A stretch of DNA of 64,000 bases, from NCBI GenBank assembly GCA_020425605.1, contig JAGQRH010000007.1:76834-140833 (forward strand), written 5' to 3'. The position numbers and the translations under genes are program-made. Within the stretch, counting starts at the first letter, position 1. Each line of letters starts with the position of its first letter. Below the pieces are notes generated by a model that was not told where the DNA came from, did no database searches, and worked only from the letters and a program-made list of their open reading frames with translations. The stretch comes from Planctomycetota bacterium (GTDB lineage: Bacteria; Planctomycetota; UBA8742; UBA2392). Of this stretch, positions 4,164 through 25,163 are shown in pieces.

Positions 4164-7100
4164 ATGGCTCAGGACCGTAAGGCGCTGTTGGCAGTCATCC
4201 TCGCGGTGAAACGGGGTTTCGTTTCGCCGGAGGAAGGCATGAATCTGCTGGAGCAGGCAGAGAACGAGCCCGACGGCGCAGCTACCATTTATGAGCAGGT
4301 GCCGCACTCACAGGCCGAAGAGCTGCGCCAGGACGCCACTGTCCTCGCCGAAGACACGGTCGAGGCGGAGAAGCTGCTGGTCGAGGCCGGCGTCGCACCC
4401 GAGGTGCAGGAAACTCTGCTGAAGCTCGGTCTTGGCCAGGCCACACGTGAAGACGTGGAAGCTACGCTCCTGAGCCTCGCCCCTACGCGCGCGACCACCA
4501 TCATTGAGCGTCCGAAACTGAAGACCTCAACGGACGAACGCTACAAGATCCTGCGTGAGCACGCCCGCGGCGGCATGGGCCGAATCCTTGTGGCCGAAGA
4601 CAAAGTCGTCGGGCGCGAAGTGGCTCTGAAGGAGCTGCTGCCCTTCAAGGGCGCGTCGGGCACGTCGCCGATCACCGGCCCGTTGCAGGCCACACCCGCG
4701 AGCGCGACTTCGACGGCCGCGGCCGCGCGCTTTCTTCGAGAAGCGACGGTCACCGGCCAGCTTGAGCACCCGAACATCGTGCCGGTTTATGAAATCGGCC
4801 AGCGCGAAGACGGCAGCCTTTACTACACGATGAAATTCGTGAAGGGCCGCACTCTGGCGAGCCGCCTGCGCGCAATCCGGAACGACGTCGATCTCTCGGC
4901 CGCCGAAAAGCAGGCTGAGCGCATGAAGCTGCTGGACGGATTCGTGGACATCTGCAATGCGATCGCGTTTGCGCACTCACGCGGCGTCATCCACCGCGAC
5001 ATCAAGCCCGCGAACATCATGCTGGGCGACTTCGGCGAGGCGATGGTGCTCGACTGGGGCCTGGCGCGCGTGGTCGGCGGCGAAAACGTCGCGCTGAGCA
5101 ACAAGTCGGACCACGAAGTCAGCCCGGAGCTTACGCTCGAAGGCGAAGTCATGGGCACGCCGGCCTACATGCCGCCGGAACAGGCTGCCGGCAAGCTCGA
5201 CCAGGTTGACGAGCGAAGCGACGTGTACGCGCTGGGCGCGGTACTGTTCGAGATCGTCACCGGCGAAGCGCCCTACGTGGGCAAGACCGCAAAGCAGGTG
5301 CTGTCGAGCGTCCTGAGCGAAGACCCCCGGCGCGTCGAGGACATCAACGACGACACTCCGCCCGAATTGGCCGCACTGGTCATGCGCTGCCTGGAGCGAA
5401 GGCCGGAAGACCGTTTCCAGAGTGCCCGCGAACTGGCCGACGAAGTGCAGGCCTTCCGCGACGGCCGAATGGTCAGCACCTACCGGTACTCTGCAATCGA
5501 GCTGCTGAAGCGCTTTGTAGCCAAGAACCGCGGGGCGGTAGCCGTCAGTGCGCTTGCGCTGTTGCTCATGATCGCGGGCGGCGTCTACGCCTACACAAAG
5601 GTCAAAGGCGAGCGCGACTCTGCGCTGGCGGCCGAGACCGACGCGCGCACCCAGCGCACCATCGCAGAGAACCAGGCGAAAGAAGCAGAGAACCAGAAGA
5701 AGATCGCCGAGAACCAGGCCGCCGAAGCCGAGCGGCAGAAGGGCATCGCGAAGGACCAGGCCGAAGAGGCCGAACGCCAGAAAACAACCGCCGAACAGAA
5801 GGCAAAAGAAGCCGAGTTCGAGCGCAAGCGGGCCGACGACAAGGCGAACGAAGCCGCCCAGAAGGCAGAAGAAGCCCGCCAGAGCCAGGAGCGCGCCACC
5901 CGCGCGCTTGAAGACGCACAGCGAAACCTGGCGCAGGCCCACCTTGGCTACGCAGCGCTGGCGGAAGAGCGCGGCCAGCCGGGCGGACAGGTGCTGCACC
6001 TTGCCGCCGCACATGCAGCGGACCCGTCCACGGTCAGCAGCGACCAGCTGGTTGCGGCACTCAGCGAGACTGCGTTTCCCCTGTGGCGCTCTCGCAGCTA
6101 CGTGGACCTGCCGGCCGGGCCGGCCACCTTCAGCGCGGATCGGCGCCTCTGCGCCGCGCCCATGTACAAGCCGCCGAAGCTGATTGACGACATCTCGGCC
6201 AACGCCAACGCCACGGCGCTGCCAGACATCGGCGTCTGGGACGTCGGGAGTGCAACGCTGCTGCGCCGGATTTCGACCGAGACCGCCATCGATCGCCGAA
6301 TGGCGTTCAACGGCGACGGCACCCGCCTGGCGATGCTCGAGGCCAGCGGAACACTTCGCATTTGGGACATCACGACCGGCGACGAGATCGCCAGCCGATC
6401 GCTGTATCCATGGAGCAACACCCCGCTGATCGTGCCCGTCCCGGGCGGCGAAACGTTCGTTACCGCAGGCAACGACGGCAAAGTCTGGGAGTGGAGCTTT
6501 GCCGACGGCTCGGCCGTGCGCTCGCGTGAAGTAAAGGATACGGAGTACACCGCGCTCGCGGTGTCCCGAGACGGAGTTCGCATCGCCGCGGGCACTTCCG
6601 AAGGCGTTCTGCTCTGGAATCTGGATACGGATGAGCCGCCGCTTGAGCTGCCCATGGTCGGCGAAAGCGTCAATGCGCTGTGCTTTGCGCCCGATGGCCT
6701 GCTCGTCGGCCTGGCGGGCAGCGAAATTCAACTCTGGGACCCGGCGACGTCCACAAAACTGAGAAGCTTTCAGTCATGGAGCTGGACCATCGGCTCGCTC
6801 GAGGTCAGCCCGGACGCCAGGTATCTCGCGGTCGGCCTGTTTGACCAGGGCTGGAAGCTGTTCGACTACGCTTCCACGGAGATCGCACTTCAGCGCACAA
6901 GCGCCAGCGGCCGCGTCCAGGGAGTCACGTTCAGCCCGGATGGAAACGCATTGCTGCTCGCCCTCAAGGGCGAGGGATTTGACGTGCTCGGTGTGGACGG
7001 CACGCCGATGGTTGAGCGCGCTTTTGACCACCGGCTTGGCTCACTCGCCGTTGAGATCAGCCCTGACGGAAGCACCTTCGCGAGCGGCGATCACGCCGGC

Positions 7101-10034
7101 CGCCTGCTGCTCCGGCGGGTCGCCGACGGCTCCACCGTCTGGAGCCGTGACGCCAGCAAAAGCAGCCTGCTGCGCGTCACGTTCAGTCCCGACGGCTCGT
7201 TGCTGGCTGTGTTCAGCAGTGACGGGATGATCTCCTTCATTGACGCAGCCAACGGCAATCAGCTCCGGTTCACCAAGCAGAATGCCTATGCCTACTGCGT
7301 GAAGTTCAGCCCGGACGGGCGCTACCTGATTGCGCCCACCAGCGACGGGCCGATCCAGCTGATCGATACGAAGACGGCGACAATCCGACGAACGCTCAAG
7401 CTCAGCACGGGCAGCGCGGTGATCTCCGTCGGGTTTGATCCGTTGATGGACCGGGTGTGGCTGGCCGATCGCTCACTGGCGGTGTGGGATTGGCGGTTCG
7501 ATTCAGATGCGCCGCCCACGAAAGTCGGGCAGCTGACTGTCCAGGGGTCACGCTCGGTGTACACAACGACCATCAGCCCGGACGGCAAGATCGGTGTCAT
7601 CGCGCTCGACGATGGCAACGTCTGCGCGTGGCAAACGGAGCCGTTCGCGCCGCTGTATTACGCCCGCATGGGCGAGGGGCCTATCACCAATTGCTCGTTT
7701 GGGCCGGGCTCGGCCTTCTTTGCATGCGGCACCGGCGATGGGCTGCTCTGTTTCGCAAACGCACGGACGGGCGCGGTCGTCAAGCAGCAACGCGCACATC
7801 GGGCCGCTATCTCCGGCACTGCCGTGTCGCCGGACGGCCGGGACATCATCACCTCCGGCGTAGACGGCGAGTTCCTGGCGTGGGATGCGCCACCGCTGAT
7901 GTATCCCGAAGCTTACCGCATGGGCATCTCGGGCGCGCAGGAAGTGAAGATCGCGCCGGATGGCAGGACTGCGGCGGTCGTCACGGACAGCGGATTGATC
8001 AAGTTGTTCGACGTCGCATCGGGCAAGACCCTCCACGAGTTTGATGTGCTTCCCTGGTACGCGACGTCGCTGGCGTTCTCATCAGATGGCTCGTCGCTGG
8101 CGGCCGCGCATTCCGGTGGTCGAGTCCAGGTTTGGGACACCACAAGCGGTGGATCCCGACACAACATCGAGGTATGCGATTACCCGACTTGCGTGGCCTT
8201 TGACTCCGCAGGTCGAATGCTTGTCAGCGGGCAGTACTACGGTCTGCAGATCTATGATGTTGAAAGCGGCGAATTGCTTCTGAGGCACCGCAGCACCGAA
8301 GGCTACTACGATGTGCTGCCGTTCCCTGACGGCAAACGCGCGCTCCAGATCTCACAGTCCGGTGAGCCTCGGGCCATCGACATCGAGACCGGCAACGTGC
8401 TGGCGAAGTTTGAGCGCAGTGCCTACTTCTCACATGCGAATGCGGTTTCACCGGACGGAACGGTGGTAGCCCTGATGCGGGACAGGGGGCTGATCGCGAT
8501 TCATGATTCCGAAACCGGCGCGCGACTGCGGACCCTGAAGGTCCGGGCGAACTACATATGCGGACTGCAGTTCTTCGCAGACGGTCGACGGCTTTTCTAC
8601 GCGACTGAAACGGGCGGGGCGGCGGTAGTCGACATCAACTCCGGGCAGGAACTGGCCGGCACCTGGTTCGGCTACCCGTACATCAATCGTGCCGCGCTGT
8701 CGCCCGACGGCAGTTTTGCATTGATCGCCGCAAGCACCGGTGACGTCGAACGCTGGAGCCTCGGGCCTGTGCTCTTGCGCAATCGCGCGCTCGCGATGCT
8801 GGACGTGAAGATCGTGATTGCAATGGCCCAGGTCCTGTCCGGCATGATCCTCGACAACCTGGAAACGATCGCGCTTCCCAGGCGCACCGGGCGATTCAAC
8901 TGGACGACTACAGACGGCAAGGCGCCTGAATTCCTGCGCGGCACGTTGCCTGACTGGGTTCCCCGATTGCAGGGGATTGACGTAACAAGGGCCCGCGAAT
9001 TCCTGCGGGGCGGCACCTCCCAGCGAGTTGCACGCCTGCGCGACGCCGCGAAAGCCTGGGAAAACGGCTTCGAAGGCTATCGCTACAAGGAAGTGCTGGA
9101 AGCGGATCTATCGACCTCCCGCGTTGAAATCCCGCCCCGCGAAAAGGACGCCGATGGGAACTACATCGGTGAGCCCGAAGGCCGCGTCGACTACTCCAGA
9201 TGGCTGAAGGCGCAGCGCGACCTGGCAGCAAACGACATGCGGGCACGGGCAGGCTCCCTGCTGGCGCGGGGCGACGCCGCAACAGCCCGCGGAGACTGGC
9301 GTTCGGCGCAGACCTGTTTCAACAACGCGCTGCTGCTGGAACCCACGAACATAGACCTGCTGCTCAAGTACTGCCGCGCCAGCGCTGAGGTGCGCGAGAC
9401 CTGGAACGCAACGTGGCAGCTGTCGCAGCACTTCGACCAGGCAACCGAAGCCCAGCGCCCGGAGCTGCAGATGGTATGGGCCAGGCTTGTGGGCCTTGAA
9501 GGTGACTACGAAGGCATGCTGCAGCGCTACCAGGCAGCACGGGAGGCCGGCTACAAGTCCGACGACTGGTACCTGCGCAGGCTTGAGTCCATGGAGGGTG
9601 CGGGACACTACCAGGAGGTCATTGCAGAGGCTGAACTGGCGCTCGCGCAGGTCGCCGACAGCAAGTTGCGCGTCGAGATTGCCGGCGTGCAGAGCCGCTG
9701 CGTCGTATGGAACGAATTGCGCGGGCGGGCCGGTAACAGGCAATGTGTGCTCGTTGCGGCTGTACCGGAGGAATCGGCAGCTGCATCGGCGGGATTGAAG
9801 CCGGGCGACATCATCCTCACCGTCAGCATCGGCGAAGAAGAGCGACTGAACTACGACCCTGAGCCCGTAGATGAATCATCACTGCGCTGGACCTGGCAGC
9901 AATTCGTCAACACGGGCGACAGCGCCCTCGACCACGCGACATTCACCGTACGCCGCGCAGACGAGGAACTCGAAGTCCAGATGCCCCGCGGGCTGCTTGA
10001 TGCGAAGCTCTTCACCCTGCGGCCGGTGGAGTAG
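4164..10034 (+). CDS. giant transmembrane Ser/Thr protein kinase with an extracytoplasmic coiled coil, multiple WD40/beta-propeller repeats, a TPR-like region and a C-terminal PDZ-like domain
   Basis: 1956-aa ORF.
- Hanks kinase motifs: G-loop HARGGMGRILVA, VALKEL, HRDIKPANIML, DWG (a DFG variant), GTPAYMPPEQ.
- Single TM segment AVAVSALALLLMIAGGVYAYT (~5536-5598).
- Q/E/K/A-rich coiled coil AENQAKEAENQKKIAENQAAEAERQK... (~5640-5900).
- Many blades of the type DG..LA.....G.L.IWD.
- C-terminal GLKPGDIILTV PDZ-like segment (~9740-9990). Confidence 0.9.
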   Translation: MAQDRKALLAVILAVKRGFVSPEEGMNLLEQAENEPDGAATIYEQVPHSQAEELRQDATVLAEDTVEAEKLLVEAGVAPEVQETLLKLGLGQATREDVEATLLSLAPTRATTIIERPKLKTSTDERYKILREHARGGMGRILVAEDKVVGREVALKELLPFKGASGTSPITGPLQATPASATSTAAAARFLREATVTGQLEHPNIVPVYEIGQREDGSLYYTMKFVKGRTLASRLRAIRNDVDLSAAEKQAERMKLLDGFVDICNAIAFAHSRGVIHRDIKPANIMLGDFGEAMVLDWGLARVVGGENVALSNKSDHEVSPELTLEGEVMGTPAYMPPEQAAGKLDQVDERSDVYALGAVLFEIVTGEAPYVGKTAKQVLSSVLSEDPRRVEDINDDTPPELAALVMRCLERRPEDRFQSARELADEVQAFRDGRMVSTYRYSAIELLKRFVAKNRGAVAVSALALLLMIAGGVYAYTKVKGERDSALAAETDARTQRTIAENQAKEAENQKKIAENQAAEAERQKGIAKDQAEEAERQKTTAEQKAKEAEFERKRADDKANEAAQKAEEARQSQERATRALEDAQRNLAQAHLGYAALAEERGQPGGQVLHLAAAHAADPSTVSSDQLVAALSETAFPLWRSRSYVDLPAGPATFSADRRLCAAPMYKPPKLIDDISANANATALPDIGVWDVGSATLLRRISTETAIDRRMAFNGDGTRLAMLEASGTLRIWDITTGDEIASRSLYPWSNTPLIVPVPGGETFVTAGNDGKVWEWSFADGSAVRSREVKDTEYTALAVSRDGVRIAAGTSEGVLLWNLDTDEPPLELPMVGESVNALCFAPDGLLVGLAGSEIQLWDPATSTKLRSFQSWSWTIGSLEVSPDARYLAVGLFDQGWKLFDYASTEIALQRTSASGRVQGVTFSPDGNALLLALKGEGFDVLGVDGTPMVERAFDHRLGSLAVEISPDGSTFASGDHAGRLLLRRVADGSTVWSRDASKSSLLRVTFSPDGSLLAVFSSDGMISFIDAANGNQLRFTKQNAYAYCVKFSPDGRYLIAPTSDGPIQLIDTKTATIRRTLKLSTGSAVISVGFDPLMDRVWLADRSLAVWDWRFDSDAPPTKVGQLTVQGSRSVYTTTISPDGKIGVIALDDGNVCAWQTEPFAPLYYARMGEGPITNCSFGPGSAFFACGTGDGLLCFANARTGAVVKQQRAHRAAISGTAVSPDGRDIITSGVDGEFLAWDAPPLMYPEAYRMGISGAQEVKIAPDGRTAAVVTDSGLIKLFDVASGKTLHEFDVLPWYATSLAFSSDGSSLAAAHSGGRVQVWDTTSGGSRHNIEVCDYPTCVAFDSAGRMLVSGQYYGLQIYDVESGELLLRHRSTEGYYDVLPFPDGKRALQISQSGEPRAIDIETGNVLAKFERSAYFSHANAVSPDGTVVALMRDRGLIAIHDSETGARLRTLKVRANYICGLQFFADGRRLFYATETGGAAVVDINSGQELAGTWFGYPYINRAALSPDGSFALIAASTGDVERWSLGPVLLRNRALAMLDVKIVIAMAQVLSGMILDNLETIALPRRTGRFNWTTTDGKAPEFLRGTLPDWVPRLQGIDVTRAREFLRGGTSQRVARLRDAAKAWENGFEGYRYKEVLEADLSTSRVEIPPREKDADGNYIGEPEGRVDYSRWLKAQRDLAANDMRARAGSLLARGDAATARGDWRSAQTCFNNALLLEPTNIDLLLKYCRASAEVRETWNATWQLSQHFDQATEAQRPELQMVWARLVGLEGDYEGMLQRYQAAREAGYKSDDWYLRRLESMEGAGHYQEVIAEAELALAQVADSKLRVEIAGVQSRCVVWNELRGRAGNRQCVLVAAVPEESAAASAGLKPGDIILTVSIGEEERLNYDPEPVDESSLRWTWQQFVNTGDSALDHATFTVRRADEELEVQMPRGLLDAKLFTLRPVE

Positions 10035-11142: not shown

Positions 11143-12645
11143 ATGCGCACCGCAATACGGATCATTGCCGTAGCTTTGCTGTTTGGACTGTTCGCAAATG
11201 GGCCCCAGGGGCAGAAAGCCACGGGCAGCCAGGCTGCGGTGTTCGACACGCCGGCCGGCAGGTTCACGGATCTCGGATTGAACTCGCAGGGCTACCGCGA
11301 AGTACGGCGCGAGAAAGACGGCGCCACGATGGTGGTTGTTCCGGCCGGCTGGTTTACCAAGCAAACCTATGTCGGCGACCCGACCGTGGACGCCGAAACG
11401 TTCCCCCTCTTCACTCCGGCATTCCTGATCGACAAGTACGAAGTCACCAATGCGCAGGTCGGCGCGTACTTCGCGCAGGCAAAGGACCTTAGATTTGATT
11501 CCGAACGGGTGTACGCCGGCAAGCAGCTGCTCGCACGGGATCACAAATGGGGCTTGTCAGTAGAAGACGGCAAAGTAGCGGTGCGGACGGGGCTTGAGAA
11601 GTATCCAAGCGTCGGCACGACCGGAGATCTCGCGCTGGCCTTCGCCCACTGGGTGGGCGGTGATCTTCCCTACGGCTACGAGTGGGAAAAGGCCGCTGCC
11701 GGACCGTCCGGGCTCCAGTTTCCCTGGGGAGACGCTGCCGCAGACAGCACGCGGGCGAACAGCTTCCTGAGTGGCCCCAGGCACCCGATGCCCGTTGGAA
11801 GCTACGCCGACGGCGTCTCGCCCTATGGCCTGTACGACATGGCCGGCAACGTTTACGACCGCTGCTACTGGTTCGAGTCCGACAAGGAGATCGATCCCAA
11901 GGCGGTACCAAGGATGATCCGGGGCGGCAGCTGGGTCTCGCCGCACTGGGCGAACTTGCGCACCGTGGATCGCTGTGCCCAGCCCATGGACGCCGCTGAG
12001 GGTTCCGTCGGCTTCCGCTGCCTGATCCGCGACGAGAAAGTGCTTGAGGCAATCGGAGAAGCAAGCAAGCCCGCGTTGCGCATCCACGACGACGTGGATG
12101 GCGCATTCAAGGAAGCCGCGGCCAGAAACGTGCCGATTTTCCTGTTTCTGGCCTACGAAACCTGCGGCCAGTGTGACCGCAGCCGCGCCCAGGTGTTCAC
12201 CGACCCCGAGTTCATCAAGTACATCAACGAGAACATCGTTCTACTCGTGGGTCACAACGCCGGCGATGGCGCGGCTGACCCCGTGGATCCGGACAGCGGG
12301 CCTAGCGTTCTGTATCCCGGCTGCCGCGCGGAGAAGCTGCACGCCACGTTCGACTACTTCTGCCGCATGGTGAACGTGCGGGTGGTGCCGAAGCAGATCA
12401 CGGAATTTACAGTCAGCCCGGGACTCTTTGCGCTGAACCCTCACCTGGACCTGCAGGAAGCGCCCGACCAGATGGTGCTGGTCGGCGAATCCGCATTCAG
12501 GAAGAGCGGTGATGACGCAAAAGGGCTCGTCGCGGCGCTGAAAAAGGCACAGGGCCGGCTCGGCACGGGGCTGACGTTCGCAGAGTTTGAAGCCGGCAAG
12601 GAAACACCCGTCACGACCTGGCAGCCACCGGCCGATGAAGACTGA
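11143..12645 (+). CDS. exported formylglycine-generating-enzyme (FGE-sulfatase/SUMF1) domain protein fused to a C-terminal thioredoxin-like domain (CGQC)
   Basis: 500-aa ORF with an N-terminal signal-like segment MRTAIRIIAVALLFGLFA. FGE-type motifs are YEVTNAQ, YGYEWEKAA, SPYGLYDMAGNVYD and RGGSW. The C-terminal part has PIFLFLAYETCGQCDRS, a thioredoxin-fold CxxC context. Confidence 0.8.
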   Translation: MRTAIRIIAVALLFGLFANGPQGQKATGSQAAVFDTPAGRFTDLGLNSQGYREVRREKDGATMVVVPAGWFTKQTYVGDPTVDAETFPLFTPAFLIDKYEVTNAQVGAYFAQAKDLRFDSERVYAGKQLLARDHKWGLSVEDGKVAVRTGLEKYPSVGTTGDLALAFAHWVGGDLPYGYEWEKAAAGPSGLQFPWGDAAADSTRANSFLSGPRHPMPVGSYADGVSPYGLYDMAGNVYDRCYWFESDKEIDPKAVPRMIRGGSWVSPHWANLRTVDRCAQPMDAAEGSVGFRCLIRDEKVLEAIGEASKPALRIHDDVDGAFKEAAARNVPIFLFLAYETCGQCDRSRAQVFTDPEFIKYINENIVLLVGHNAGDGAADPVDPDSGPSVLYPGCRAEKLHATFDYFCRMVNVRVVPKQITEFTVSPGLFALNPHLDLQEAPDQMVLVGESAFRKSGDDAKGLVAALKKAQGRLGTGLTFAEFEAGKETPVTTWQPPADED

Positions 12646-12720: not shown

Positions 12721-13833
12721 ATGCCCATTCGCCTTCAGGTTCGCGTCCCCCGTGGAGCCACGGTAGACGTGTCGGACCACACCTTCACCCGCTCCGTCAT
12801 CACGGTCGGGCGCTCGCCGGAGTGCGACCTGGTGTTGCCTGGCGACGAGGTGCGGGTATCGCGCCAGCACGTGCGTGTCGAGCGTCGCGAGGGAGGCTAC
12901 CTGCTGGTCGACCTCGGCAGCCGCAATGGGACGCTGCTGAATGACGTGCAGATACCGCCCAGCAGCACGCATCCCCTCAACGAAACCGATGTTGTAAAGA
13001 TGGGCTCCGTCGAGATGGTGATTGAAGCCGTCCTGCTCGATAACGACACCCGCGACAAGGTCCAGGCGATCCGCAAATCCGGTAACACGGAAGGGCGAAG
13101 GCAAAGCGAGGTCATCCGCAGCGACCCGCGTGAAGCCGCCGCCCTGCGCGCCATGCAGTCGATTTCCAAGAGCCTGCTCGGCGAGGATGATTTCCAGACC
13201 CCGGAGCAACTGACGCTGTTCGGTGAGATGATCCGCGTCAGCCTCGACGTCCTGCTGGAAGGCCTGTTCCAGACCCTTTCCGCACGCAAAGAGTTCGAGG
13301 GCGAGTTCGACGCCAGCGTGACCATGGCGTTCCAGCGAGACGCCAACCCGATCAAAATGATGGAAGAGCTTGAGCGCTTCAAACGCTTCCCGGTCGACTG
13401 GAAGGCGGGCTCTGACGTCATGGCCGTCAAGGACTCGCTGGAACGCGCGATCAAGGACGTCAGTCAGCACCAGATGGGCCTCCTCGCCGGAATGCAGCAG
13501 GTTCTTGATGCAATCATCAAGCGCCTCGACCCGATTGCGATCGAGAAGGCGGCCATGGGCAAGGCCAGCCTGCTCGGCCGCATGAGCAAGGCGCGCGTCG
13601 CATGGCAGGAATACCTCGACACGTACAGCGAGTTCCTGGCCGAGAGCAGCAAGCTGTTCAACGACATGATCTACCCGAACCTGCAGAAGGGCTACCTGCT
13701 GAGCCACAAGGAAAAGACGCGGATCATGCAGTCAGCACAGGACTTAACACGCAAAGCTGCAGAAGCCGCCGCCAAGGCTGCGGAGAACGCCGCGCAAGTC
13801 GTTGGTGAAGCGGATGAATCCGACAGTGCTTGA
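12721..13833 (+). CDS. tagH: T6SS-associated FHA-domain protein TagH (Fha), canonical FHA
   Basis: 370 aa. The N-terminal FHA domain has all phosphothreonine-binding signatures: ITVGRSPECDLVL, VSRQHVRV, LGSRNGTLLN. The C-terminal ~200 aa is paralogous to the next gene (HQMGLLAG...ESSKLFN..IYP...KGY). It sits at the head of the T6SS gene block. Confidence 0.85.
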   Translation: MPIRLQVRVPRGATVDVSDHTFTRSVITVGRSPECDLVLPGDEVRVSRQHVRVERREGGYLLVDLGSRNGTLLNDVQIPPSSTHPLNETDVVKMGSVEMVIEAVLLDNDTRDKVQAIRKSGNTEGRRQSEVIRSDPREAAALRAMQSISKSLLGEDDFQTPEQLTLFGEMIRVSLDVLLEGLFQTLSARKEFEGEFDASVTMAFQRDANPIKMMEELERFKRFPVDWKAGSDVMAVKDSLERAIKDVSQHQMGLLAGMQQVLDAIIKRLDPIAIEKAAMGKASLLGRMSKARVAWQEYLDTYSEFLAESSKLFNDMIYPNLQKGYLLSHKEKTRIMQSAQDLTRKAAEAAAKAAENAAQVVGEADESDSA

Positions 13834-13884
13834 CGCGCCGTAAGTCGTTGCCAATACTGCCTGCCCTTTCAATTCGGCGGGTGC

Positions 13885-14856
13885 ATGGCTCTAAAGGTCG
13901 TGGTCACGAAGGTTGGATCAACTGAGCCGGTCTCCGAACATACGTTCGGCAAAGAGGCCCGCGCCCGCGGCATATCCGTAGGTTCTTCACCTGACAACGA
14001 CATCGTGCTGGAGGGTGCGAAAGACAACGCCGGGCGCGTAGAGCGCCAGAAAGCCGGATACTACTACGTGGACCTTGGCGGCGGCGTCGGATTCACCGCA
14101 GACGGCGAGGTCCAGGAAACCGGCACTACCTTTCAGGTCACCGTCGGCACGAAGATCGGAGTCGGGAACTACACCCTGGAGTTCATCCGCGGCGAGACCC
14201 CGCGCCGCGAGCCGGTGGTCGAGGTCGCCCCGGACGACTCTGCTGCGACGGACATCCAGTCCGCCGCGTACAAGCTGGTGTCTCAGGTTTCGCGCTACTT
14301 CCTTGGTGAAGGCAACTTCCAGACCGTCCAGGAAATCGACCGTTTCGGTGAGCTTATCCAGCTGACGCTCGAAGTCGCCATGGAGTGGATGGGCCGCTCG
14401 CTGAAGGGGCGCGAAGAGTTCAAAGACCAGTTCAGCGCGCCACTTACGCAACTCTTTGCGCGCAGCCTGAACCCGGTAAAGAAGGGTACGGACATCAGCC
14501 AGATCGCCAACTTCCTGCTCGATTGGCGTGAAGAGCGGGACCTGAATGAGATCAAAGGCTCACTGCAGCACACGTTCAACGACATGGCGAAGCACCAGAT
14601 GGGCCTGTTGGCGGGCGTACAGCAGTTTGTCAGCGACCTGCAGCAGAAGCTGGACCCGCAGAAGATCGAAAAGGACGCCGGCGGCGGAATCTTCGGCGGC
14701 GCAAAGAAAGCATGGGAGAGATACGCCGACCTGTACGGTGAGACATTTGCCGAGAGCAGCAAACTCTTTAACGAGTTGATCTACCCAAGCATCCGGAAGG
14801 GCTATATTTTCTCGCACGAAGACATTCACAGTGATGACAAGCCGCAGGGCGGCTAG
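13885..14856 (+). CDS. TagH paralogue with a degenerate (pThr-binding residues lost) FHA-like N-terminus
   Basis: 323 aa. The C-terminal domain is clearly homologous to TagH (HQMGLLAGVQQFV...FAESSKLFNELIYPSIRKGYIFSHE). The N-terminus aligns to the FHA domain but reads ISVGSSPDNDIVL...AGRVER...LGGGVGFT. The G-R, S-x-x-H and N-G motifs are therefore all absent. Confidence 0.75.
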   Translation: MALKVVVTKVGSTEPVSEHTFGKEARARGISVGSSPDNDIVLEGAKDNAGRVERQKAGYYYVDLGGGVGFTADGEVQETGTTFQVTVGTKIGVGNYTLEFIRGETPRREPVVEVAPDDSAATDIQSAAYKLVSQVSRYFLGEGNFQTVQEIDRFGELIQLTLEVAMEWMGRSLKGREEFKDQFSAPLTQLFARSLNPVKKGTDISQIANFLLDWREERDLNEIKGSLQHTFNDMAKHQMGLLAGVQQFVSDLQQKLDPQKIEKDAGGGIFGGAKKAWERYADLYGETFAESSKLFNELIYPSIRKGYIFSHEDIHSDDKPQGG

Positions 14857-14871: not shown

Positions 14872-15351
14872 ATGCGCAACAGGTTGATGTTGTTGGGCCT
14901 GGCACTGGCACTTGCAGTGCTTGCGGGATGCACCAGCACTACGGTCACCTTGGACCTGGTGGCCTTGAAGCCCGTGAATGAAGGCAAGGTCGGGGACGCC
15001 ACCGATGGCGAGAGCCGCGTCGTGGAAGTCCGCGTCTACCAGCTCAAGGACGACGCCAAGTTCAAGGCCGCCACGGTTGAAGACGTGTGGACCAACGCCG
15101 AAGAAGCCCTTGGCGACTCAATGATTGACGTAAAGCTCGGCGAATCTGTCTTTCCGGAGGACGCCAACGGTCAGGCCAACGGCAAACAGATCACGATCGA
15201 CCCGTTGGACGCCGGCACAAAGTTCATCGGCATCCTGGCCCTTTTCAGCAACAGTGACGATGGCGAGCGCAAGGTCGTGGTGCCGCTCGACCAGGCAGAT
15301 GATGTGCTGTTTGAGCTGACCGGCTACCACATCACCATCAAGCAACAGTAG
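14872..15351 (+). CDS. tssJ: T6SS outer-membrane lipoprotein TssJ
   Basis: 159 aa. Lipobox LAVLAGC. TssJ-like VEVRVYQLKDDAKFKAATVEDVW. Position between tagH and tssK. Confidence 0.8.
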   Translation: MRNRLMLLGLALALAVLAGCTSTTVTLDLVALKPVNEGKVGDATDGESRVVEVRVYQLKDDAKFKAATVEDVWTNAEEALGDSMIDVKLGESVFPEDANGQANGKQITIDPLDAGTKFIGILALFSNSDDGERKVVVPLDQADDVLFELTGYHITIKQQ

Positions 15352-15365
15352 CAGCGGGAGACTTC

Positions 15366-16721
15366 GTGGAGCAGCAGTTGAAAGTTCTGTGGACCGAGGG
15401 GATGTTCCTCACCCCTCACCATTTCCAGCAGTGGGACCGCTATTACGAGCACCTGCTGCAGCAGCGGCTGCGCAACATCTCTCCCTTGGCGTGGGGAGTT
15501 CGTGAGCTCGCCATTAATGAGGAAGCCCTCGCCAACGGACAGGTTGCGTTGTCTCGCATCTCGGCGATCATGCCCGACGGAATGGTGATCGATGCCCCCG
15601 GCTCAGACACCGCGCCGCCGGCCCGGGATGTCGGCGATCGCTTCCCCGCCGAGAAAGAACGACTGGGCGTCTTCCTGGCCTCGCCGATCGTTCCCGAGGG
15701 CGGCGTCGCTCAGGACCCGACCGGCAGCCACGACGGCCGCCCGACGCGGTACCGCGGCAAGACCATCAGCAGCCGCGACGAGAACGCGCAGGCCGCGAAC
15801 CGCGACATTCAGGTCGCCGCCAAGAACACACGCATCCTGTTTGAAGGCGAATCGCTCGACGACCATGTCTGGGTCAAGATCGCCGAGCTTGGCAAGGGCA
15901 GCACCGGCGGGTTCGCACTGGATGAGCACTACGTGCCGCCAAGCGTCAACATGGGCGCATCAGCCCATCTGATGGCGCGCCTGCGCAAGATCCTGGAAAT
16001 TCTGGCGGTCAAAAGCACCGAGTTTGCCCGCCAGCGGCGCAATCGCGGCGCCGGGCTTGCCAGCTTCAGCACCAGCGAAAGTGCGAGCTTCTGGCTGCTG
16101 CATACCGTGAACGGGTTCATCCCGCCGCTGCAGCACATGTACGGCTCAGGCCACCATCATCCGGAGCAGGTCTACCTCACGCTCGCCCAGATGACCGGCT
16201 ATCTGTACACCTTCGCGGGCGAAGGCCACCCGAAGGACGTGACGGCCTACCAGCACGAAGATCTCGCCGGCACCTTCGCTCGTCTTGAAGAGAAGCTGGT
16301 AGCGCTGCTGGGCACGATCATCCCGACCAAGTGCACCAATATCGAGCTGCAGCAGACCCGCGACAATATGTTCGTCGCAAAGATCCAGGACGACCGCGTA
16401 CTTCAGCCCGAGGGCGCAATCTACGTCGCGATCCAGGCCGACGTTCCGGCCGAGAAAGTTGTCCGCGAGGCGCCGCTCAAGTTCAAGATCAGCAGCCAGG
16501 ACCGTGTGGACCAGCTCATCACGGCCGCGTTGCGCGGGATAAGCGTAAGGCACATCCCGGCACCGCCGCCGGAGATCCCGGTACAGCCCGGCAGGAACTA
16601 CTTCCAGATAGACAAGGCCGGCGACCACTGGGAAGCCATTCGCAGCTCTCGGAGCATGGCGTTCTACCTGCCGCCGGAGTTCCAGGGGCTGAAGCTCGAG
16701 TTGATGGCAGTAAAGGAATAG
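15366..16721 (+). CDS. tssK: T6SS baseplate protein TssK
   Basis: 451 aa with a GTG start. N-terminal hallmark VLWTEGMFLTPHHFQQWDRYYEHLL. Synteny tssJ-K-L-M. Confidence 0.92.
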   Translation: MEQQLKVLWTEGMFLTPHHFQQWDRYYEHLLQQRLRNISPLAWGVRELAINEEALANGQVALSRISAIMPDGMVIDAPGSDTAPPARDVGDRFPAEKERLGVFLASPIVPEGGVAQDPTGSHDGRPTRYRGKTISSRDENAQAANRDIQVAAKNTRILFEGESLDDHVWVKIAELGKGSTGGFALDEHYVPPSVNMGASAHLMARLRKILEILAVKSTEFARQRRNRGAGLASFSTSESASFWLLHTVNGFIPPLQHMYGSGHHHPEQVYLTLAQMTGYLYTFAGEGHPKDVTAYQHEDLAGTFARLEEKLVALLGTIIPTKCTNIELQQTRDNMFVAKIQDDRVLQPEGAIYVAIQADVPAEKVVREAPLKFKISSQDRVDQLITAALRGISVRHIPAPPPEIPVQPGRNYFQIDKAGDHWEAIRSSRSMAFYLPPEFQGLKLELMAVKE

Positions 16722-17414
16722 ATGATGCCTCAGGAAGGTGAACAGCGGCCGCCACTAGCCGACCTGTGTTGTGAAGTCTTCGCATTCGCGTTCCAGCTCC
16801 GGGCCAGCAAGGACCCGGGCACTGCTGCGGATGTAAAGGCCAAGATCAGCACCCTGTTCAGCGACTTTGAGCAGAAGGCAAGGACCGCCGGATACAAGCC
16901 CGAGACCGCCCAGACGGCCAAGTACGCACTGGCCGCATTCATCGACGAAACCGTCCTTGCAAGCAAGTTTCAGATGAAGGATGAGTGGGCCGGCAGCCCG
17001 CTTCAGCTCGAGTACTTCAACGACTTCGCGGCCGGCGAGGAATTCTACAACAAGCTCAAGACCATCCGCGGCAGCAGCGACTCAGATCGCCGCGACCTCA
17101 CGCAAGTCTATTTCCTTGCACTGACGCACGGCTTCAAGGGGATGTACATCGACCTGAAGGGCATGGAAGAGCGCAAGAACCTGCTTGAGTTGCTGTCCCG
17201 TGAACTGAAGGAAGGCCAGACCGGTGACGTCGTCCAGATGTCACCCTCATGGCAGCCGCCGGACGAGTTGCCCGCGTTGGTTCGATCAACGCCCTCATGG
17301 CTCGTGCCCGCTGTGTGCGCGGTGTTGTTGATCGCGCTGTTGATTGCCCTCGCAGCGACCGCCGAGTTCATGTCAAAGGGCGCCATTGAAGCACTCACCG
17401 GGCAGGGGGGCTAA
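16722..17414 (+). CDS. tssL: T6SS membrane-complex protein TssL (DotU family), without a peptidoglycan-binding extension
   Basis: 230 aa. DotU-like AKYALAAFIDETVL...WAGSPLQLEYFN....GEEFY. C-terminal TM segment WLVPAVCAVLLIALLIALAA. No OmpA/PG-binding domain follows. Confidence 0.88.
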   Translation: MMPQEGEQRPPLADLCCEVFAFAFQLRASKDPGTAADVKAKISTLFSDFEQKARTAGYKPETAQTAKYALAAFIDETVLASKFQMKDEWAGSPLQLEYFNDFAAGEEFYNKLKTIRGSSDSDRRDLTQVYFLALTHGFKGMYIDLKGMEERKNLLELLSRELKEGQTGDVVQMSPSWQPPDELPALVRSTPSWLVPAVCAVLLIALLIALAATAEFMSKGAIEALTGQGG

Positions 17415-17417
17415 AGC

Positions 17418-20400
17418 ATGCGCCAGGTTCTGTCCGCACTCATGAAGGAAGGCGTGATCAGCGTGGTTGTGCTGATCCTGCTGTGCCTGCTGGTCTGGTT
17501 CGGGGGTATGTACCTCGAAACCGAGCCCAACGAATACCTGAAGACACGCATTGCGATCATCGCGGTTCTGATCGGCATTTTCCTGGTGCTCTTCCTGGTC
17601 CAGAAAGTGATGGCCGTCCGCAGCGCCGTGCGCATTGAGCAGCAGCTCAAGGCCCAGTCCGGAAGCCAGCTGGAAGGTGCCGACGCCGACAAGAAGGCCG
17701 AGATCGAGACGCTCTCCAAGAACTTCGCCGACTCGTTGGAAGCCCTGAAAAAGACCAAGGGCGGCAAGAGCGCGCTGTTCACCCTGCCCTGGTACATCAT
17801 CATCGGCCCGCCCGGCAGCGGCAAGACGACCGCGCTTCAGGAGTCCGGGCTGAACTTCCCGGCCGTACAGGGCGGCGCAAAAGTCCGCGGCATTGGCGGC
17901 ACGCGCAACTGCGACTGGTGGTTTACGGAAGACGGCATCCTGCTCGATACGGCCGGGCGCTACACCACGGTTGCAGAGGACCAGGAAGAATGGTTCGCCT
18001 TCCTCGAGATGATCCGCACCAGCCGCAAGGACAAGCCGATCAACGGCGCCATCGTCGCGATCGCGATCGATGAGCTGCACCGGGCGACAGCCTCTGAGCT
18101 TGACCAGATGGCCAAGGATGTGCGCAACCGGCTGGATGAGCTTGCCGCGCGCCTGCAGGCGGTCTTCCCGGTCTACATGATGTTCACGAAATGCGACCTG
18201 ATTCAGGGGTTCGTTGAGTTCTACGAAGACTTCAACAAAGAGCAGCGCGGCCAGGTCTGGGGCTTCACGTTCCCCTACCAGCTGCCTGACAAGCAGTACA
18301 CGGAAGTCTTCAGTGAGCAGATCGCGAAGATGTCCGGCAACATCAGCGCCCGCCAGCTTGAGTTGCTGGGTACAGAGCGCCCGCCTGCAAAGAAACAGAG
18401 CATCTACCTGTTCCCGCGTCAGTTCGCGCTGGCACAGGTCAAGATGAAAGAGTTCCTGGCTGCGTTGTTCCACGCAAACGCCTTCCAGGAAAGCGCCATG
18501 TTGCGCGGTATCTACTTCACGTCCGGCACTCAGAAGGGCACGCCGATCGACCAGATCCTGGCCCGGATGGGCGAAGCCATGGGGCTGGACGCCGGCGCAA
18601 ATCAATCCGAAGAGCGCGTCGAGAAGAAGAGCTACTTCATCCACAACCTCTTCACGAACGTAATCTTCCACGACAAGACACTCGCCCGCAGCAGCAGCCG
18701 CGTATTGCGAAAACGCCGCGCCGCCCGCCTGACACTTCAGATCACCTCGTTGCTGGCACTGGCGCTCATGAGCTGGGCCCTGTTGCAGTCGTTCTTCGGC
18801 AACCACGAGATCATTGAGAAAGTCGAGACCGCAGGCATCAGCGTGCGCGACATGGAGCTCGACAGCAGGCCGGACCTCGATGAGCTGAAGTCACTCGACG
18901 CCCTGCGGCGCGAACTCTCACACTTGGACGAGTTCAAGCGCGATGGCCGCCCGGTGCGCCTCAGCTTCGGCATGTACAAAGGCGACGCCATGTTTGATGC
19001 CGGCGCAAACGTCTACTTCCAGCGCCTCCGCCCGCTGTACATCGCCCCCTGTGGTACGCGCGTCGAGCGCGAACTCGACCGCCTGGTGGGCTCGCTGCAG
19101 CCCAACTCGCCATCCAACGAGTACCAGAAGCTGCTCGACCTGTGGCGCGTCTACCGCATGATTGGCGGCAAACTCCCGCCGCAGGCCGCACTCGTCAGCA
19201 ACATCCTCAAGAAGGAAAATCGCTGGAGCGGAATGCTGCCGGGGATGAACGCCGACGAAATCGAAGCGCTGTCCGGCGAACAGCTGGAATTCTACGCAGC
19301 GCAACTCGCAATCACTGACAAGGAAAACGACAAATACGGGCTGTATGTCTCGCTCGATCCCCAGCTCGACAAGCGCGCCGCGGACAAGCTGCAAAACGCG
19401 TTCTGGACCGTCTCGGCCTACGAGGCGATCATCCAGCACACCAGCGAGAATCGCAAACCACTCAGGCTCGAGGATATCGCGCCGACCAACACGGCCTATC
19501 TTGAGCTGCGTACAAACGACACGGCCGGCACGAACCTGAGCCGACTGAACGCGTTCACGCAAGAGGCCTGGGATACCGAGATCAAGTCGCTGATCGACGA
19601 GCGAAGCATTGACCTCGAGGCGCTCTACAACGAACTCGGAATCAAGAAGACACGTGGGGACATCCGCGACGACCTGTACAAGCGCCACAAGGCCGCGCAG
19701 ATCGATGTGTGGAACATCTTCCTCCAGCAGGTCTACCCGAAGCCCAGCCTGTTCAGCAACGTGAAGGACACGAATGAGGCGCTGAAGGTCCTGGTTGGCG
19801 ATCAGTCACCGTATCGGGACCTGATCCGGAACGTGTGGAACAAGCGCCAGCTGGCGCTCGCCGTGGACAACAAGATCGACGGCCCCAGCGAGGCAGACCT
19901 CAAGGCCCTGGATACGTCGTTCGCAGCACTGGACGCGTTCTCCAAGGCATACAACACGTTCTGGAGCACGGGCGGTCGCAAGGGCTCCCGCGTGATGAGC
20001 TATGTCGACAACAAGGTTCCGTTGCCGACGCTCGCCACTGCCTTTCTTTCGGCATCTCAGGACGTACCGCAGCCGTTCTCGACTCGCGACGAGTCGGTGA
20101 AAGTTGCACTGCTGAAGATCATCGACGTCAGCTTCGACGCACTGAAATCCGAGGCCGACGCTGAAGTCAAGGACTACTGGAATGACGGCCCGCAGAAACT
20201 GTGGAAGCTGAGCTTCGCAGGCAAGTATCCGTTCGATCCAAAGGGCAAAGACTCCGTCTCGATGGTCAACTTTTCTCGCATGTTCAGCCCGAAGTCAGGC
20301 CAGATCTGGAATGTCGACACGCGCGTGCGCGAAGTCCAGAAGATCGCCTTCCACGGCGGCCGCAGGCTCGTGACCCTGACCCAGGAGTACGAAAACACGA

Positions 20401-20915
20401 TCCGCCTCGCCACTGACATCCGCGAGGCGATGTACGACACCGAGAATGACGACAACGTGAAGGTGAAGTTCTCGGTCAAGCTGGTCCAGGCCGGCCTTCT
20501 GGTTGAGAGCCTGATCGAGATCGGTACGGATGAAAACGGCAACGTCGAGTCTCTGCCCTACAACAAGTACCCCGACCAGACCCGCGACTTCGTCTGGGCC
20601 CAGTACAGTACCGGTCGCTCCAAGATGGGCGCCCGCGTCACTGCCAAGTACACCGAGCGCAAGATTCCGTTGCCCGGCAAGGGCCAGATGGATGACGAGT
20701 GGGGCCTGCTGCGCCTGGTACACCGCCCGTATGCGCTCTCTTTCACCCAGGATGAGGCAAGCGAAGTACCGGTCTACCGTTGCCTCTGGGAGTTCAAGTC
20801 GGCCGACGGGCAGCTGTTTTACCTGCAGGCAGAGTTCGCACCCCGAAAGAAAGTGAACCCCTTCCAGGATGACCTGTTCCCCGGCTTCTCGCTCGCGGAG
20901 GCCGTGAGCAAGTGA
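17418..20915 (+). CDS. tssM: T6SS membrane-complex protein TssM (IcmF family)
   Basis: 1165 aa. N-terminal TM segments, Walker A GPPGSGKTTAL, and IcmF-like length and synteny after tssL. Confidence 0.92.
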   Translation: MRQVLSALMKEGVISVVVLILLCLLVWFGGMYLETEPNEYLKTRIAIIAVLIGIFLVLFLVQKVMAVRSAVRIEQQLKAQSGSQLEGADADKKAEIETLSKNFADSLEALKKTKGGKSALFTLPWYIIIGPPGSGKTTALQESGLNFPAVQGGAKVRGIGGTRNCDWWFTEDGILLDTAGRYTTVAEDQEEWFAFLEMIRTSRKDKPINGAIVAIAIDELHRATASELDQMAKDVRNRLDELAARLQAVFPVYMMFTKCDLIQGFVEFYEDFNKEQRGQVWGFTFPYQLPDKQYTEVFSEQIAKMSGNISARQLELLGTERPPAKKQSIYLFPRQFALAQVKMKEFLAALFHANAFQESAMLRGIYFTSGTQKGTPIDQILARMGEAMGLDAGANQSEERVEKKSYFIHNLFTNVIFHDKTLARSSSRVLRKRRAARLTLQITSLLALALMSWALLQSFFGNHEIIEKVETAGISVRDMELDSRPDLDELKSLDALRRELSHLDEFKRDGRPVRLSFGMYKGDAMFDAGANVYFQRLRPLYIAPCGTRVERELDRLVGSLQPNSPSNEYQKLLDLWRVYRMIGGKLPPQAALVSNILKKENRWSGMLPGMNADEIEALSGEQLEFYAAQLAITDKENDKYGLYVSLDPQLDKRAADKLQNAFWTVSAYEAIIQHTSENRKPLRLEDIAPTNTAYLELRTNDTAGTNLSRLNAFTQEAWDTEIKSLIDERSIDLEALYNELGIKKTRGDIRDDLYKRHKAAQIDVWNIFLQQVYPKPSLFSNVKDTNEALKVLVGDQSPYRDLIRNVWNKRQLALAVDNKIDGPSEADLKALDTSFAALDAFSKAYNTFWSTGGRKGSRVMSYVDNKVPLPTLATAFLSASQDVPQPFSTRDESVKVALLKIIDVSFDALKSEADAEVKDYWNDGPQKLWKLSFAGKYPFDPKGKDSVSMVNFSRMFSPKSGQIWNVDTRVREVQKIAFHGGRRLVTLTQEYENTIRLATDIREAMYDTENDDNVKVKFSVKLVQAGLLVESLIEIGTDENGNVESLPYNKYPDQTRDFVWAQYSTGRSKMGARVTAKYTERKIPLPGKGQMDDEWGLLRLVHRPYALSFTQDEASEVPVYRCLWEFKSADGQLFYLQAEFAPRKKVNPFQDDLFPGFSLAEAVSK

Positions 20916-21859
20916 CCGACTACCCCACCGGATGTCTGGGAAAGCTGCCGCTGCACGGCGATTTCATTCGCTTCAACGCGTCGTTGGCAGAAGTGCGCGA
21001 GTTCGACACCTGGGTTCAGGAAGGCATCTACGAGGGTTATCAGCAACTCGACAGCAACTGGGACAGCAGCTTCGACTCCGCACCGGTCTCACGTTTCATC
21101 TACTGCTCACCGAAATCCCGCAGGCTGCTGGCGGGTCTGTTCAAGCCGTCTGTAGACAAAGCCGGTCGACGCTACCCGTTCATGGTCTATACGGTCATTG
21201 AGCCGGGCGCTCTCGGAAATGACGCGGCCTACCTGCCATGGGCCATGGAGCCGTTCCTGCTGAAGGCAGTCGAGCTCGCGGCCTGGAGCGACACCGCCAT
21301 TGACCTGAGCACGTTTCTGAGAAGTTTCGAGACGTTCCGGTTCGAGCTCGACCTGACCGAAGCACGCAAGTCATTTGCCAAGTACGTCCTTAGCCACAGT
21401 TCCGGCGACTACTGGGCCGCGAACTTCGGACAGGCTGACGACCCGCGCAGGTATGCGGCAATTCAGTTGGCCGCCTGGGGCGCTGATCTGCGTCCGCCCG
21501 AAAGCGAGGCCCTGCGCCTGCCGGTGAGCGAGCCTGAGGCGGAAGCGGCCTTCTGGCTGGACCTCAGCCGACGCTTTTGCGCCGGGAACCAGCTCCCCAC
21601 GCTTGCCTTCTGGAATGAGCCCTCGGGCAGTGTTCCGACGCGCCTGCACCTGTGTTTCGGTGCGTTGCGGCCGTCGGCATTCCTGCCGTTCGTGCTTCCC
21701 GGCCGCGCGGACGGACAGGTAAAGGACATCACCCTGAACCAGGCGGTAGACGCGGCGCTGCTGGATCGCGCCCGTGCCCAGTTTGAAGAAGTTTTGAGTG
21801 AACCTTCACTCAAGTTGTCGGACCTGTTGCAAAGATTGCCCCGCTCCAAAGAGGTTTGA
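20912..21859 (+). CDS. tagF: T6SS-associated protein TagF (ImpM/DUF2094 family)
   Basis: 315 aa. The GTG start overlaps the tssM stop (GTGA). N-terminal hallmark GCLGKLPLHGDFIRFN. Position after tssM matches the Pseudomonas H1-type order. Confidence 0.8.
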   Translation: MTDYPTGCLGKLPLHGDFIRFNASLAEVREFDTWVQEGIYEGYQQLDSNWDSSFDSAPVSRFIYCSPKSRRLLAGLFKPSVDKAGRRYPFMVYTVIEPGALGNDAAYLPWAMEPFLLKAVELAAWSDTAIDLSTFLRSFETFRFELDLTEARKSFAKYVLSHSSGDYWAANFGQADDPRRYAAIQLAAWGADLRPPESEALRLPVSEPEAEAAFWLDLSRRFCAGNQLPTLAFWNEPSGSVPTRLHLCFGALRPSAFLPFVLPGRADGQVKDITLNQAVDAALLDRARAQFEEVLSEPSLKLSDLLQRLPRSKEV

Positions 21860-22781: not shown

Positions 22782-22807
22782 GCCCACAGGGCACAAAGGA
22801 GTAAGTC

Positions 22808-23311: not shown

Positions 23312-23384
23312 CGCGCTGACTTGAAGCTCACTTACGAATATGTCCCGGCCCCACGGGTCGGTATCGGAACGAAGGAGTAGTGCC

Positions 23385-24866: not shown

Positions 24867-25002
24867 GCGGCAGCGGGCGTGTCCAGTCGGATGGGGTTTG
24901 GTTGAGGCTTGAAACAGTCTGCAAACCTGACACGCCAAAAGCAGGGATCGACGGCGGAAGCACATCTCTGAAGGGTAGGCGCCTCGGAGTTTGCAGGACG
25001 CG

Positions 25003-25163
25003 TAAGATTGTTTTATAGTTTTTACGTTCTAACTAATTTTGTTTCATTCTTGGCGTTCTTTTTGACGCGGCGTATTGTTCTAGTGTCGCCGATGGGGCGC
25101 AAGAGACCAAAAAAACTAATCGAACTGTAAGATTTAGGCGCAGTATTCACCAGGAGATCAGCC
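25003..25163 (+). promoter_or_regulatory. AT-rich regulatory/promoter region upstream of hcp, including a near-consensus sigma-54-type -24/-12 element (TGGC-N7-TTGA at 25051-25065)
   Basis: This is the only conspicuously AT-rich stretch in the T6SS locus (GTAAGATTGTTTTATAGTTTTTACGTTCTAACTAATTTTGTTTCATTC...). TGGCGTTCTTTTTGAC matches TGGCAC-N5-TTGC except that the -12 C is replaced by A. AGGAG RBS at 25152-25156. Confidence 0.3.

Follow-up and report, generated by a model that had tools for sequence, protein, structure and literature searches.

A stretch of 64,000 nucleotides from a Planctomycetota genome (assembly GCA_020425605.1, contig JAGQRH010000007.1, positions 76,834 to 140,833 of the forward strand; from here on the window) carries two adjacent tagH genes, tagH1 and tagH2, at the head of a type VI secretion system (T6SS) gene cluster. 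The genome was assembled from a metagenome, is 4.24 Mb long and 86% complete. TagH1 appears from its sequence to be an ordinary TagH and a standard phosphothreonine reader. TagH2, according to profile alignments and a predicted structure, is a genuine pseudo-FHA protein, i.e. the FHA fold is kept and the phosphate-holding residues Arg, Ser and Asn are lost. Below, we describe how the two proteins are related, where the pair occurs and which division of labour may explain it.

TagH1 and TagH2 are paralogues

The initial annotation of the window had read the two genes as tandem TagH paralogues that share the TagH C-terminal domain, and this is what we find. Both open reading frames (ORFs) are present on the plus strand, and their products can be aligned end to end with 36% identity over 332 columns (BLASTP, E=4e-65). 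The Pfam domain T6SS_FHA_C (PF20232, cut-off 23.7 bits) is found in both TagH1 (E=5.7e-24, 85.3 bits) and TagH2 (E=1.6e-18, 67.6 bits), and the columns that are invariant over 75 TagH sequences are kept in both proteins. No solved structure in the PDB was matched by the sequence of the TagH C-domain.

TagH1 matches the Pfam FHA domain (PF00498) with an E-value of 1.7e-18 and 67.3 bits, while no match to this domain was obtained for TagH2 at E<=0.1. The NCBIfam TagH model, TIGR03354, has a cut-off of 120.25 bits, which TagH1 passes with 125.6 bits whereas TagH2 fails with 69.3 bits. In Pfam, TagH2 shows a sub-threshold match to Yop-YscD_cpl (E=0.017, 15.8 bits, 33.2 bits being required). TagH2 has no transmembrane segment; its FHA fold is joined by a linker to a TagH C-domain, which is helical. 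Given its C-domain, its genomic context and its profile-profile homology, TagH2 is a divergent paralogue within the TagH family, below the sequence definitions of both FHA and the TagH equivalog.

Loss of the phosphothreonine-contacting residues in TagH2

The first copy had been described as a canonical FHA protein with the signatures G-R, S-x-x-H and N-G. This agrees with the Pfam match of TagH1 and with its GR, SRQH and NGT motifs, all of which are invariant in 17 orthologues. To align the FHA cores of the two copies again we used BLASTP and three independent profile alignments (hhalign, an HMM alignment to 6cah, and hmmalign). The TagH1 residues G30 R31 S47 H50 N69 G70 T71 correspond to G S - A V G F in TagH2.

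When a profile of 49 TagH2-clade sequences is aligned by hhalign to a profile of 17 TagH1-clade sequences, the probability is 100. In this alignment G30-R31 of TagH1 is placed opposite G-S, the S-R-Q-H position reads K-D-N-A with a deletion of four residues just before it, and G-S-R-N-G-T is opposite G-G-g-V-G-F of the TagH2 clade. One solved structure, the FHA domain of Rv1747 (6cah, E=0.1), was matched in a sequence search with the TagH2 profile, and the substitutions seen against it are identical. With hmmalign and a model of the canonical planctomycete TagH N-domain, the result is again G S - A V G F in TagH2 where the canonical residues are G R S H N G T. In the whole clade, no conserved Arg, Ser/Thr or Asn that could act as a substitute was found in the three apex loops of TagH2.

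The initial annotation had allowed that a profile alignment might place the phosphothreonine-binding Arg, Ser and Asn of the second copy at shifted positions. This is ruled out by hhalign, by the HMM alignment to the Rv1747 FHA domain and by the hmmalign scoring. The claim that all three signatures are gone holds for the second copy of the window, with one refinement for its relatives. The whole TagH2 clade lacks the Arg, the Ser and the Asn, but the loss of the His in S-x-x-H is not clade-wide; this residue is the clade consensus although it is absent in the window copy.

A single-copy TagH from genus g5 of the same family (L039:1963-3546, genome G234) keeps G-R, but its Ser is replaced by Ala and its Asn by Ile. 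This single TagH is partly degenerate, and therefore the phosphothreonine site can erode in TagHs that are not duplicated as well.

The FHA fold and the FGKEARARG element

Residues 1-103 of TagH2 were modelled by AlphaFold2 from a 75-sequence alignment with a pLDDT of 87-95. Ten strands form a sandwich in this model, and residues 23-28 add a short helix. The AlphaFold2 model of TagH1 shows the same ten strands in the same order, without the helix. We used the predicted TagH2 N-domain as a Foldseek query, and essentially all of the top 50 PDB matches are FHA domains or FHA-containing proteins. The best matches have TM-scores of 0.73-0.82, normalised to the target, and E-values of about 2e-6. 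Among the matches are OdhI, GarA, Ki67, DgcB, Rv0020c and Rad53, but also PscD of the type III secretion system (T3SS; 6uid) and the chlamydial CT664 (3gqs). A structure prediction of the N-termini had been proposed with the initial annotation, and in it the second copy is predicted to keep the FHA fold. The confident model and the Foldseek matches together rule out that the TagH2 N-terminus has some other fold.

The extra helix is formed by the FGKEARARG element, which holds a four-residue insertion relative to TagH1 and is the best-conserved part of the TagH2 N-domain. Within the 49 sequences R26 and G29 are invariant, and F21, G22, K23, E24 and A25 are at least 90% conserved. The M-A-L at the N-terminus is also invariant in the TagH2 clade. 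The helix is predicted to sit at the pole opposite the old phosphothreonine apex, because the G-R loop follows strand 3 and the strand ends lie at opposite ends of the sandwich.

In the TagH2 proteins of genus g3 (L014, L018 and L019; P0026-P0030) a deletion of 13 residues has taken away the former N-G loop together with two short strands, and FGKEARARG is kept. Two further motifs were noted in the pair, neither of which is used as evidence here. The linker of TagH1, otherwise variable, contains a conserved A-I-R-K-x3-[T/S]-x-[G/A]-R motif, which could speculatively be a phospho-acceptor. Right after the last strand of the TagH2 N-domain the sequence E-T-P-R-R is frequent, not universal, and we regard it as a speculative lead.

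Selection on the two copies

We calculated dN/dS by the method of Nei and Gojobori. The least saturated comparison is that of the window with locus L003, where dS is about 0.6. Here, dN/dS is 0.114 for the N-domain and 0.037 for the C-domain of TagH2, 0.055 and 0.029 for the corresponding domains of TagH1, and 0.048 for TssK. Among close relatives the values are 0.11-0.22 for the TagH2 N-domain, 0.04-0.13 for its C-domain, 0.05-0.14 for TssK and 0.03-0.10 for the TagH1 N-domain.

Column conservation was computed for TagH1 and TagH2 in the same nine genomes. The three apex loops are conserved at 0.97-0.98 in TagH1 and at 0.44-0.68 in TagH2, whereas the connection between strands 2 and 3 has a conservation of 0.80 in TagH1 and 0.96 in TagH2. 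The C-domains are equally conserved (0.85 in both). Judged from these values, constraint in TagH2 has moved from the phosphothreonine apex to the FGKEARARG element. By the dN/dS values and its presence in four genera (see below), TagH2 is kept under selection and is not decaying.

Distribution and history of the pair

About 49 full-length orthologues of TagH2 were found, with identities of 47-90%. All are from Planctomycetota metagenome bins, and nearly all lack a precomputed PF00498 match. We searched 401 Planctomycetota genomes with PF20232 and obtained a match in 36. Two or three strong TagH C-domain matches per genome are found in only one family of this set, f1, in the genera g1, g2, g3 and g6. 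They are present in 15 of 19 sampled relatives and in the window genome. In another family, a second PF20232 match was seen in one genome; it is sub-threshold and lies far from the first. Among the 36 positive genomes, a TagH2-type match is always accompanied by a TagH1-type match.

The order tagH1-tagH2-tssJKLM recurs in at least 12 related loci. In g3, and in one g2 genome, tagH2 alone precedes tssJ, and tagH1 is surrounded by unrelated genes, either at a distance of 75-600 kb or on a different contig. About 6 kb from such an orphan tagH1 we noted one ORF of 575-597 amino acids that contains both a T6SS_VipA and a VipB domain (L034:1149-2942, genome G366 of g3; similar in L035 and L037). It lies among housekeeping-type genes, away from the main T6SS locus, and looks like a fused TssB-TssC-like sheath protein.

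Some loci contain a third TagH with a pseudo-FHA domain, here called H3, between tagH2 and tssJ (L003:9052-10038 in GCA_020638675.1; L013 and L041, at about 7380-8390 in L013). H3 is about 48% identical to TagH2. Its carriers are GCA_020638675.1, whose other T6SS proteins are 90-94% identical to those of the window, and genome G310 of genus g6.

In a maximum-likelihood tree of the C-domains, TagH1 forms a clade with support 100/99, sister to the single TagHs of the in-family genera g4 and g5 (99/95). TagH2 and H3 together form a clade with support 100/100, and the stems under both the TagH1 and the TagH2 clade are about 1.0 substitutions per site long. Such long stems, and the grouping of TagH1 with in-family single TagHs to the exclusion of TagH2, rule out a recent tandem duplication. 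The H3 copies form one clade nested in TagH2, next to TagH2 of the g2 type, which suggests an old second duplication with differential loss. For the TagH1/TagH2 split itself, we conclude only that it appears old and that both paralogues changed markedly afterwards. By tree and genome survey, the pair is restricted to one family and is old.

Rarity and precedent

A profile search of 1.84 billion representatives clustered at 50% identity gave 2815 TagH-like proteins. A single full-length representative stands for the TagH2 clade (E=1.3e-149), after which the next match drops to 3e-68. In the best 150 of the 2815 representatives we scored the three phosphate-contacting positions with hmmalign. 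All three are kept in 93 representatives, two in 34, where the change is mostly from Asn to Ser, Gly or Ala, and one in two; only members of the TagH2 clade keep none. One of the two proteins that keep a single position appears, by its sequence, to be of the same type as the g5 single TagH (L039). The rarity described here refers to the 401 Planctomycetota genomes and these best 150 representatives, not to all phyla. A tblastn search of plasmids with the TagH2 C-domain gave no match, and a single scan of genome contigs found loci of the Planctomycetota type only.

A pair of a canonical and a pseudo-FHA TagH had been thought to be undescribed for the T6SS, and we also found no description of one in the literature. 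A review from 2026 on the accessory factors of the T6SS gives TagH as a single accessory factor without mention of paired copies (PMC13584744), and a survey of the gene context of 741 tagF loci does not mention paired fha genes. We found only one report of a double tagH, from Campylobacter cuniculorum, with two tagH genes and one T6SS (PMC9676060). As here, two tagH genes are present in a genome with one T6SS. However, the C. cuniculorum copies are 99.67% identical at the nucleotide level, i.e. a recent, near-identical duplicate with an undiverged FHA, while the planctomycete pair is ancient, diverged and conserved across genera. We found no experimental study of a T6SS in Planctomycetota in the literature.

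The proteobacterial TagH/Fha1 proteins (ImpI, VCA0112, PA0081) have the same build of an N-terminal FHA fold, a linker and a PF20232 C-domain. They also resemble the planctomycete pair in that the gene directly precedes tssJ-tssK-tssL, which is also its place in the locus of E. coli, and in that TagF, a Hanks-type kinase and a TagR-like FGE protein are encoded nearby. TagH1 agrees with this family in every tested respect. The characterised loci, however, have one TagH with phospho-dependent and phospho-independent roles (PMC6082577), whereas the planctomycete loci have two or three paralogues (36% identity). In addition, the tssJ-proximal planctomycete copies lack the phosphate-contacting residues and are below the Pfam FHA and NCBIfam TagH thresholds.

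FHA folds without phosphothreonine-binding residues are known from other secretion systems. The cytoplasmic FHA-fold domains of T3SS MxiG, PrgH, YscD and PscD and the N-terminal ones of EssC in the secretion system of type VIIb (T7SSb) lack these residues and are protein-protein assembly modules (PMC3162421, PMC10765036). TagH2 is like them in its fold and in its missing residues, and PscD and CT664 are among its structural matches. Unlike TagH2, which is soluble and has a T6SS-specific C-domain, they form part of larger membrane-ring or ATPase subunits, to which they are fused, and lack a canonical sister copy next to them. According to hhalign and the C-domain tree, the origin of TagH2 is inside the TagH family and not in the T3SS or T7SS lineages. 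In its way of working, TagH2 may by analogy come closest to MxiG of the T3SS and EssC of the T7SSb, whose FHA folds are phospho-independent, without belonging to those families. Its conserved FGKEARARG surface suggests that the TagH2 N-domain may serve as an assembly interface.

Gene organisation of the locus

The features of the locus are listed in Table 1. The tagH pair heads a complete, co-oriented T6SS cluster in the order tagH1-tagH2-tssJ-tssK-tssL-tssM-tagF-tssA-tssBC-hcp-tssFG-clpV-vgrG, with tssJKLM-tagF directly downstream of the pair. The genes from tssJ to tagF follow one another in this order in more than 12 related loci as well. The gap between tagH1 and tagH2 is 51 bp, and tssJ starts 15 bp after tagH2. 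A scan of positions 10000-15500 for promoters and terminators gave nothing above chance, and no terminator was found between tagH1 and tagH2.

Table 1. Features of the tagH locus, with positions in the window.
Feature	Position	Strand	Description
Giant Ser/Thr kinase	4164..10034	+	1956 aa; Hanks-type kinase domain followed by a single transmembrane segment and WD40 propellers
FGE-sulfatase plus thioredoxin-like protein	11143..12645	+	PF03781 (9.4e-27); between kinase and tagH1
tagH1	12721..13833	+	370 aa; FHA domain, linker, T6SS_FHA_C, long C-terminal helix with acidic tail (AlphaFold2 model, Pfam)
TagH1 FHA domain	12721..13032	+	Residues 1-104; intact phosphothreonine-binding apex G30 R31, S47 R48 Q49 H50, N69 G70 T71
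TagH1 C-terminal TagH domain	13141..13713	+	Residues 141-331; PF20232 match 168-323; helical in AlphaFold2 model
tagH2	13885..14856	+	323 aa; pseudo-FHA TagH paralogue; PF20232 match, no PF00498 match
TagH2 N-terminal FHA-fold domain	13885..14193	+	Residues 1-103; without phosphothreonine-binding Arg, Ser, Asn
TagH2 FGKEARARG element	13945..13974	+	F21 to I30; TagH2-clade-specific; short helix between strands 2 and 3
TagH2 C-terminal TagH domain	14257..14823	+	Residues 125-313; PF20232 match 161-299; all family-invariant residues kept
Membrane complex/baseplate/TagF block	14872..21859	+	tssJ to tagF
tssJ	14872-15351	+	Pfam/NCBIfam
tssK	15366-16721	+	Pfam/NCBIfam
tssL	16722-17414	+	Pfam/NCBIfam
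tssM	17418-20915	+	Pfam/NCBIfam
tagF	20912-21859	+	Repressor; Pfam/NCBIfam
tssA, tssB, tssC, hcp, tssF, tssG, clpV, vgrG, DUF2169 protein, pentapeptide-repeat proteins	21936..38428	+	Pfam

Downstream of vgrG (window positions 34222-38428) we noted a DUF2169-pentapeptide fusion of 758 amino acids and a pentapeptide/decapeptide-repeat protein of 642 amino acids, which are presumably VgrG-associated adaptor or cargo proteins.

The kinase encoded upstream of the pair matches Pkinase (Pfam, 3.8e-32) and many WD40 families. Its transmembrane segment, taken from the translation, is AVAVSALALLLMIAGGVYAY. An ORF for a thioredoxin-like protein separates the kinase gene from the FGE-sulfatase/thioredoxin gene. 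In P. aeruginosa, TagR is the co-activator of the kinase PpkA; it is a protein of the FGE-sulfatase superfamily and binds PpkA (PMC13713981). Because TagR belongs to this superfamily, the kinase and the FGE protein look like an input of the PpkA/TagR type, with an unusual sensor domain. By this analogy, the kinase is a candidate PpkA-like input kinase and the FGE protein a candidate TagR-like co-activator.

A possible division of Fha roles

Fha/TagH is needed for assembly in many T6SSs, but its phosphorylation-independent role, the function of its C-domain and its partner have been described as unresolved (PMC6082577, PMC13584744). According to work on Serratia (Ostrowski et al. 2018, PMC6082577), Fha multimerises on the machine and overcomes TagF when it is phosphorylated in a PpkA-dependent manner, and it also has "a second, phosphorylation-independent function". 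Direct binding of TagF to Fha has been described, and unphosphorylated TagH is sequestered by TagF (PMC5995506, PMC13584744).

We propose that the duplication split the two Fha roles of Serratia and Pseudomonas, with a structural TagH2 and a kinase-responsive TagH1 that probably act together. On the sequence comparisons and the analogy with these systems, we consider the chances of this to be about even. TagH2, and H3 where it is present, would take the phosphorylation-independent structural role, for which it would use its C-domain together with the new surface on the N-domain. The kinase-dependent step, i.e. Fha multimerisation and release from TagF repression, would fall to TagH1, whose likely input would be the upstream PpkA-like kinase with the TagR-like protein. 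The two would meet in one complex, plausibly a hetero-oligomer formed through the shared C-domain. That they act in the same complex is probable, because no TagH2 was seen in a genome that lacks TagH1, and because the C-domains of both proteins changed markedly once the copies had separated. In a more specific form, which we put forward tentatively, TagH2 and H3 would be an obligate, phosphorylation-blind subunit that docks on the basal complex via the FGKEARARG helix, and TagH1 a phospho-switch that joins the hetero-oligomer and releases TagF repression.

Alternatively, TagH2 could be a regulator or decoy, which either competes with TagH1 for docking and damps firing, or soaks up TagF and acts on the threshold or on de-repression. 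The C-domain of TagH2 keeps all family-invariant residues and should bind the usual partners of a TagH C-domain. The locus also contains tagF, whose product sequesters unphosphorylated TagH as described above, and the number of pseudo-FHA copies varies between one and two per locus, as for a dosage-type modulator. However, the new N-domain element is strongly conserved, which implies a specific gained interaction and not a mere loss of function, and the C-domains of both paralogues have diverged strongly from those of single-copy TagHs, which argues against competition for one ancestral site. In g3 it is the pseudo-FHA copy, not the canonical one, that keeps the tagH position beside tssJ in the tssJKLM operon; the stoichiometric co-expression with the core to be expected there would fit a subunit better, and we favour a structural role over a pure decoy. 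As a whole, we find the regulator or decoy explanation unlikely.

It is a good deal less probable that TagH2 reads a phosphorylated or acidic ligand through a new pocket, in which the basic K23, R26 and R28 of FGKEARARG, all invariant or nearly so, would replace the apex. No other feature of the N-domain is as well conserved as this basic motif, the rest of the fold is intact, and a kinase is present in the locus in the window's genus. By strand geometry, however, the canonical site and the motif are at opposite ends of the sandwich, and at the end of the motif to our knowledge no FHA domain binds phosphothreonine, and the degenerate FHA folds of the secretion machines (MxiG, EssC) are phospho-independent protein-protein modules. 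The explanation to which we give least credence is that TagH2 is a redundant duplicate drifting toward loss under relaxed selection. The variable apex loops, the loss of part of the domain in one genus and a third copy that is present or absent between close relatives would fit such a drift. The dN/dS values, the distribution and the conserved FGKEARARG motif nevertheless largely rule out a decaying duplicate: the frame is intact in about 49 orthologues from four genera, dN/dS is low in both domains, the C-domain is as conserved as that of TagH1, the clade-specific motif is near-invariant, and tagH2 stays beside tssJ where tagH1 has moved away.

Several points weigh against the proposed split of roles. 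The dN of the TagH2 N-domain is two to four times that of TagH1, which drift would also predict and which partial relaxation would equally give. For most genome pairs dS is near saturation, and reliable dN/dS values come from the closest comparisons only. The C-domain tree is unrooted with two long stems and does not settle the order of duplication versus acquisition. The distal position of the FGKEARARG helix is deduced from strand order and not from coordinates. Further, the synteny of the kinase is confined to genus-level relatives, more distant loci with the pair lacking it, and there is no PP2C phosphatase in the locus, the sole PP2C_2-family match of the genome being on another contig (C83). 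For these last two reasons, the phospho-input to TagH1 is only assumed.

A phospho-competent and a phospho-blind TagH kept side by side are a natural separation-of-function experiment. If the proposed split of roles is true, the pair gives a direct handle on the phosphorylation-independent function of Fha and on its binding partner. Comparing the partners of each N- and C-domain could locate Fha on the basal complex and separate regulatory from structural contacts. The T6SS would then join the T3SS and the T7SSb as a secretion system that has recruited FHA folds as phospho-independent assembly modules, and what is known of the diversity of T6SS accessory genes is extended to Planctomycetota.

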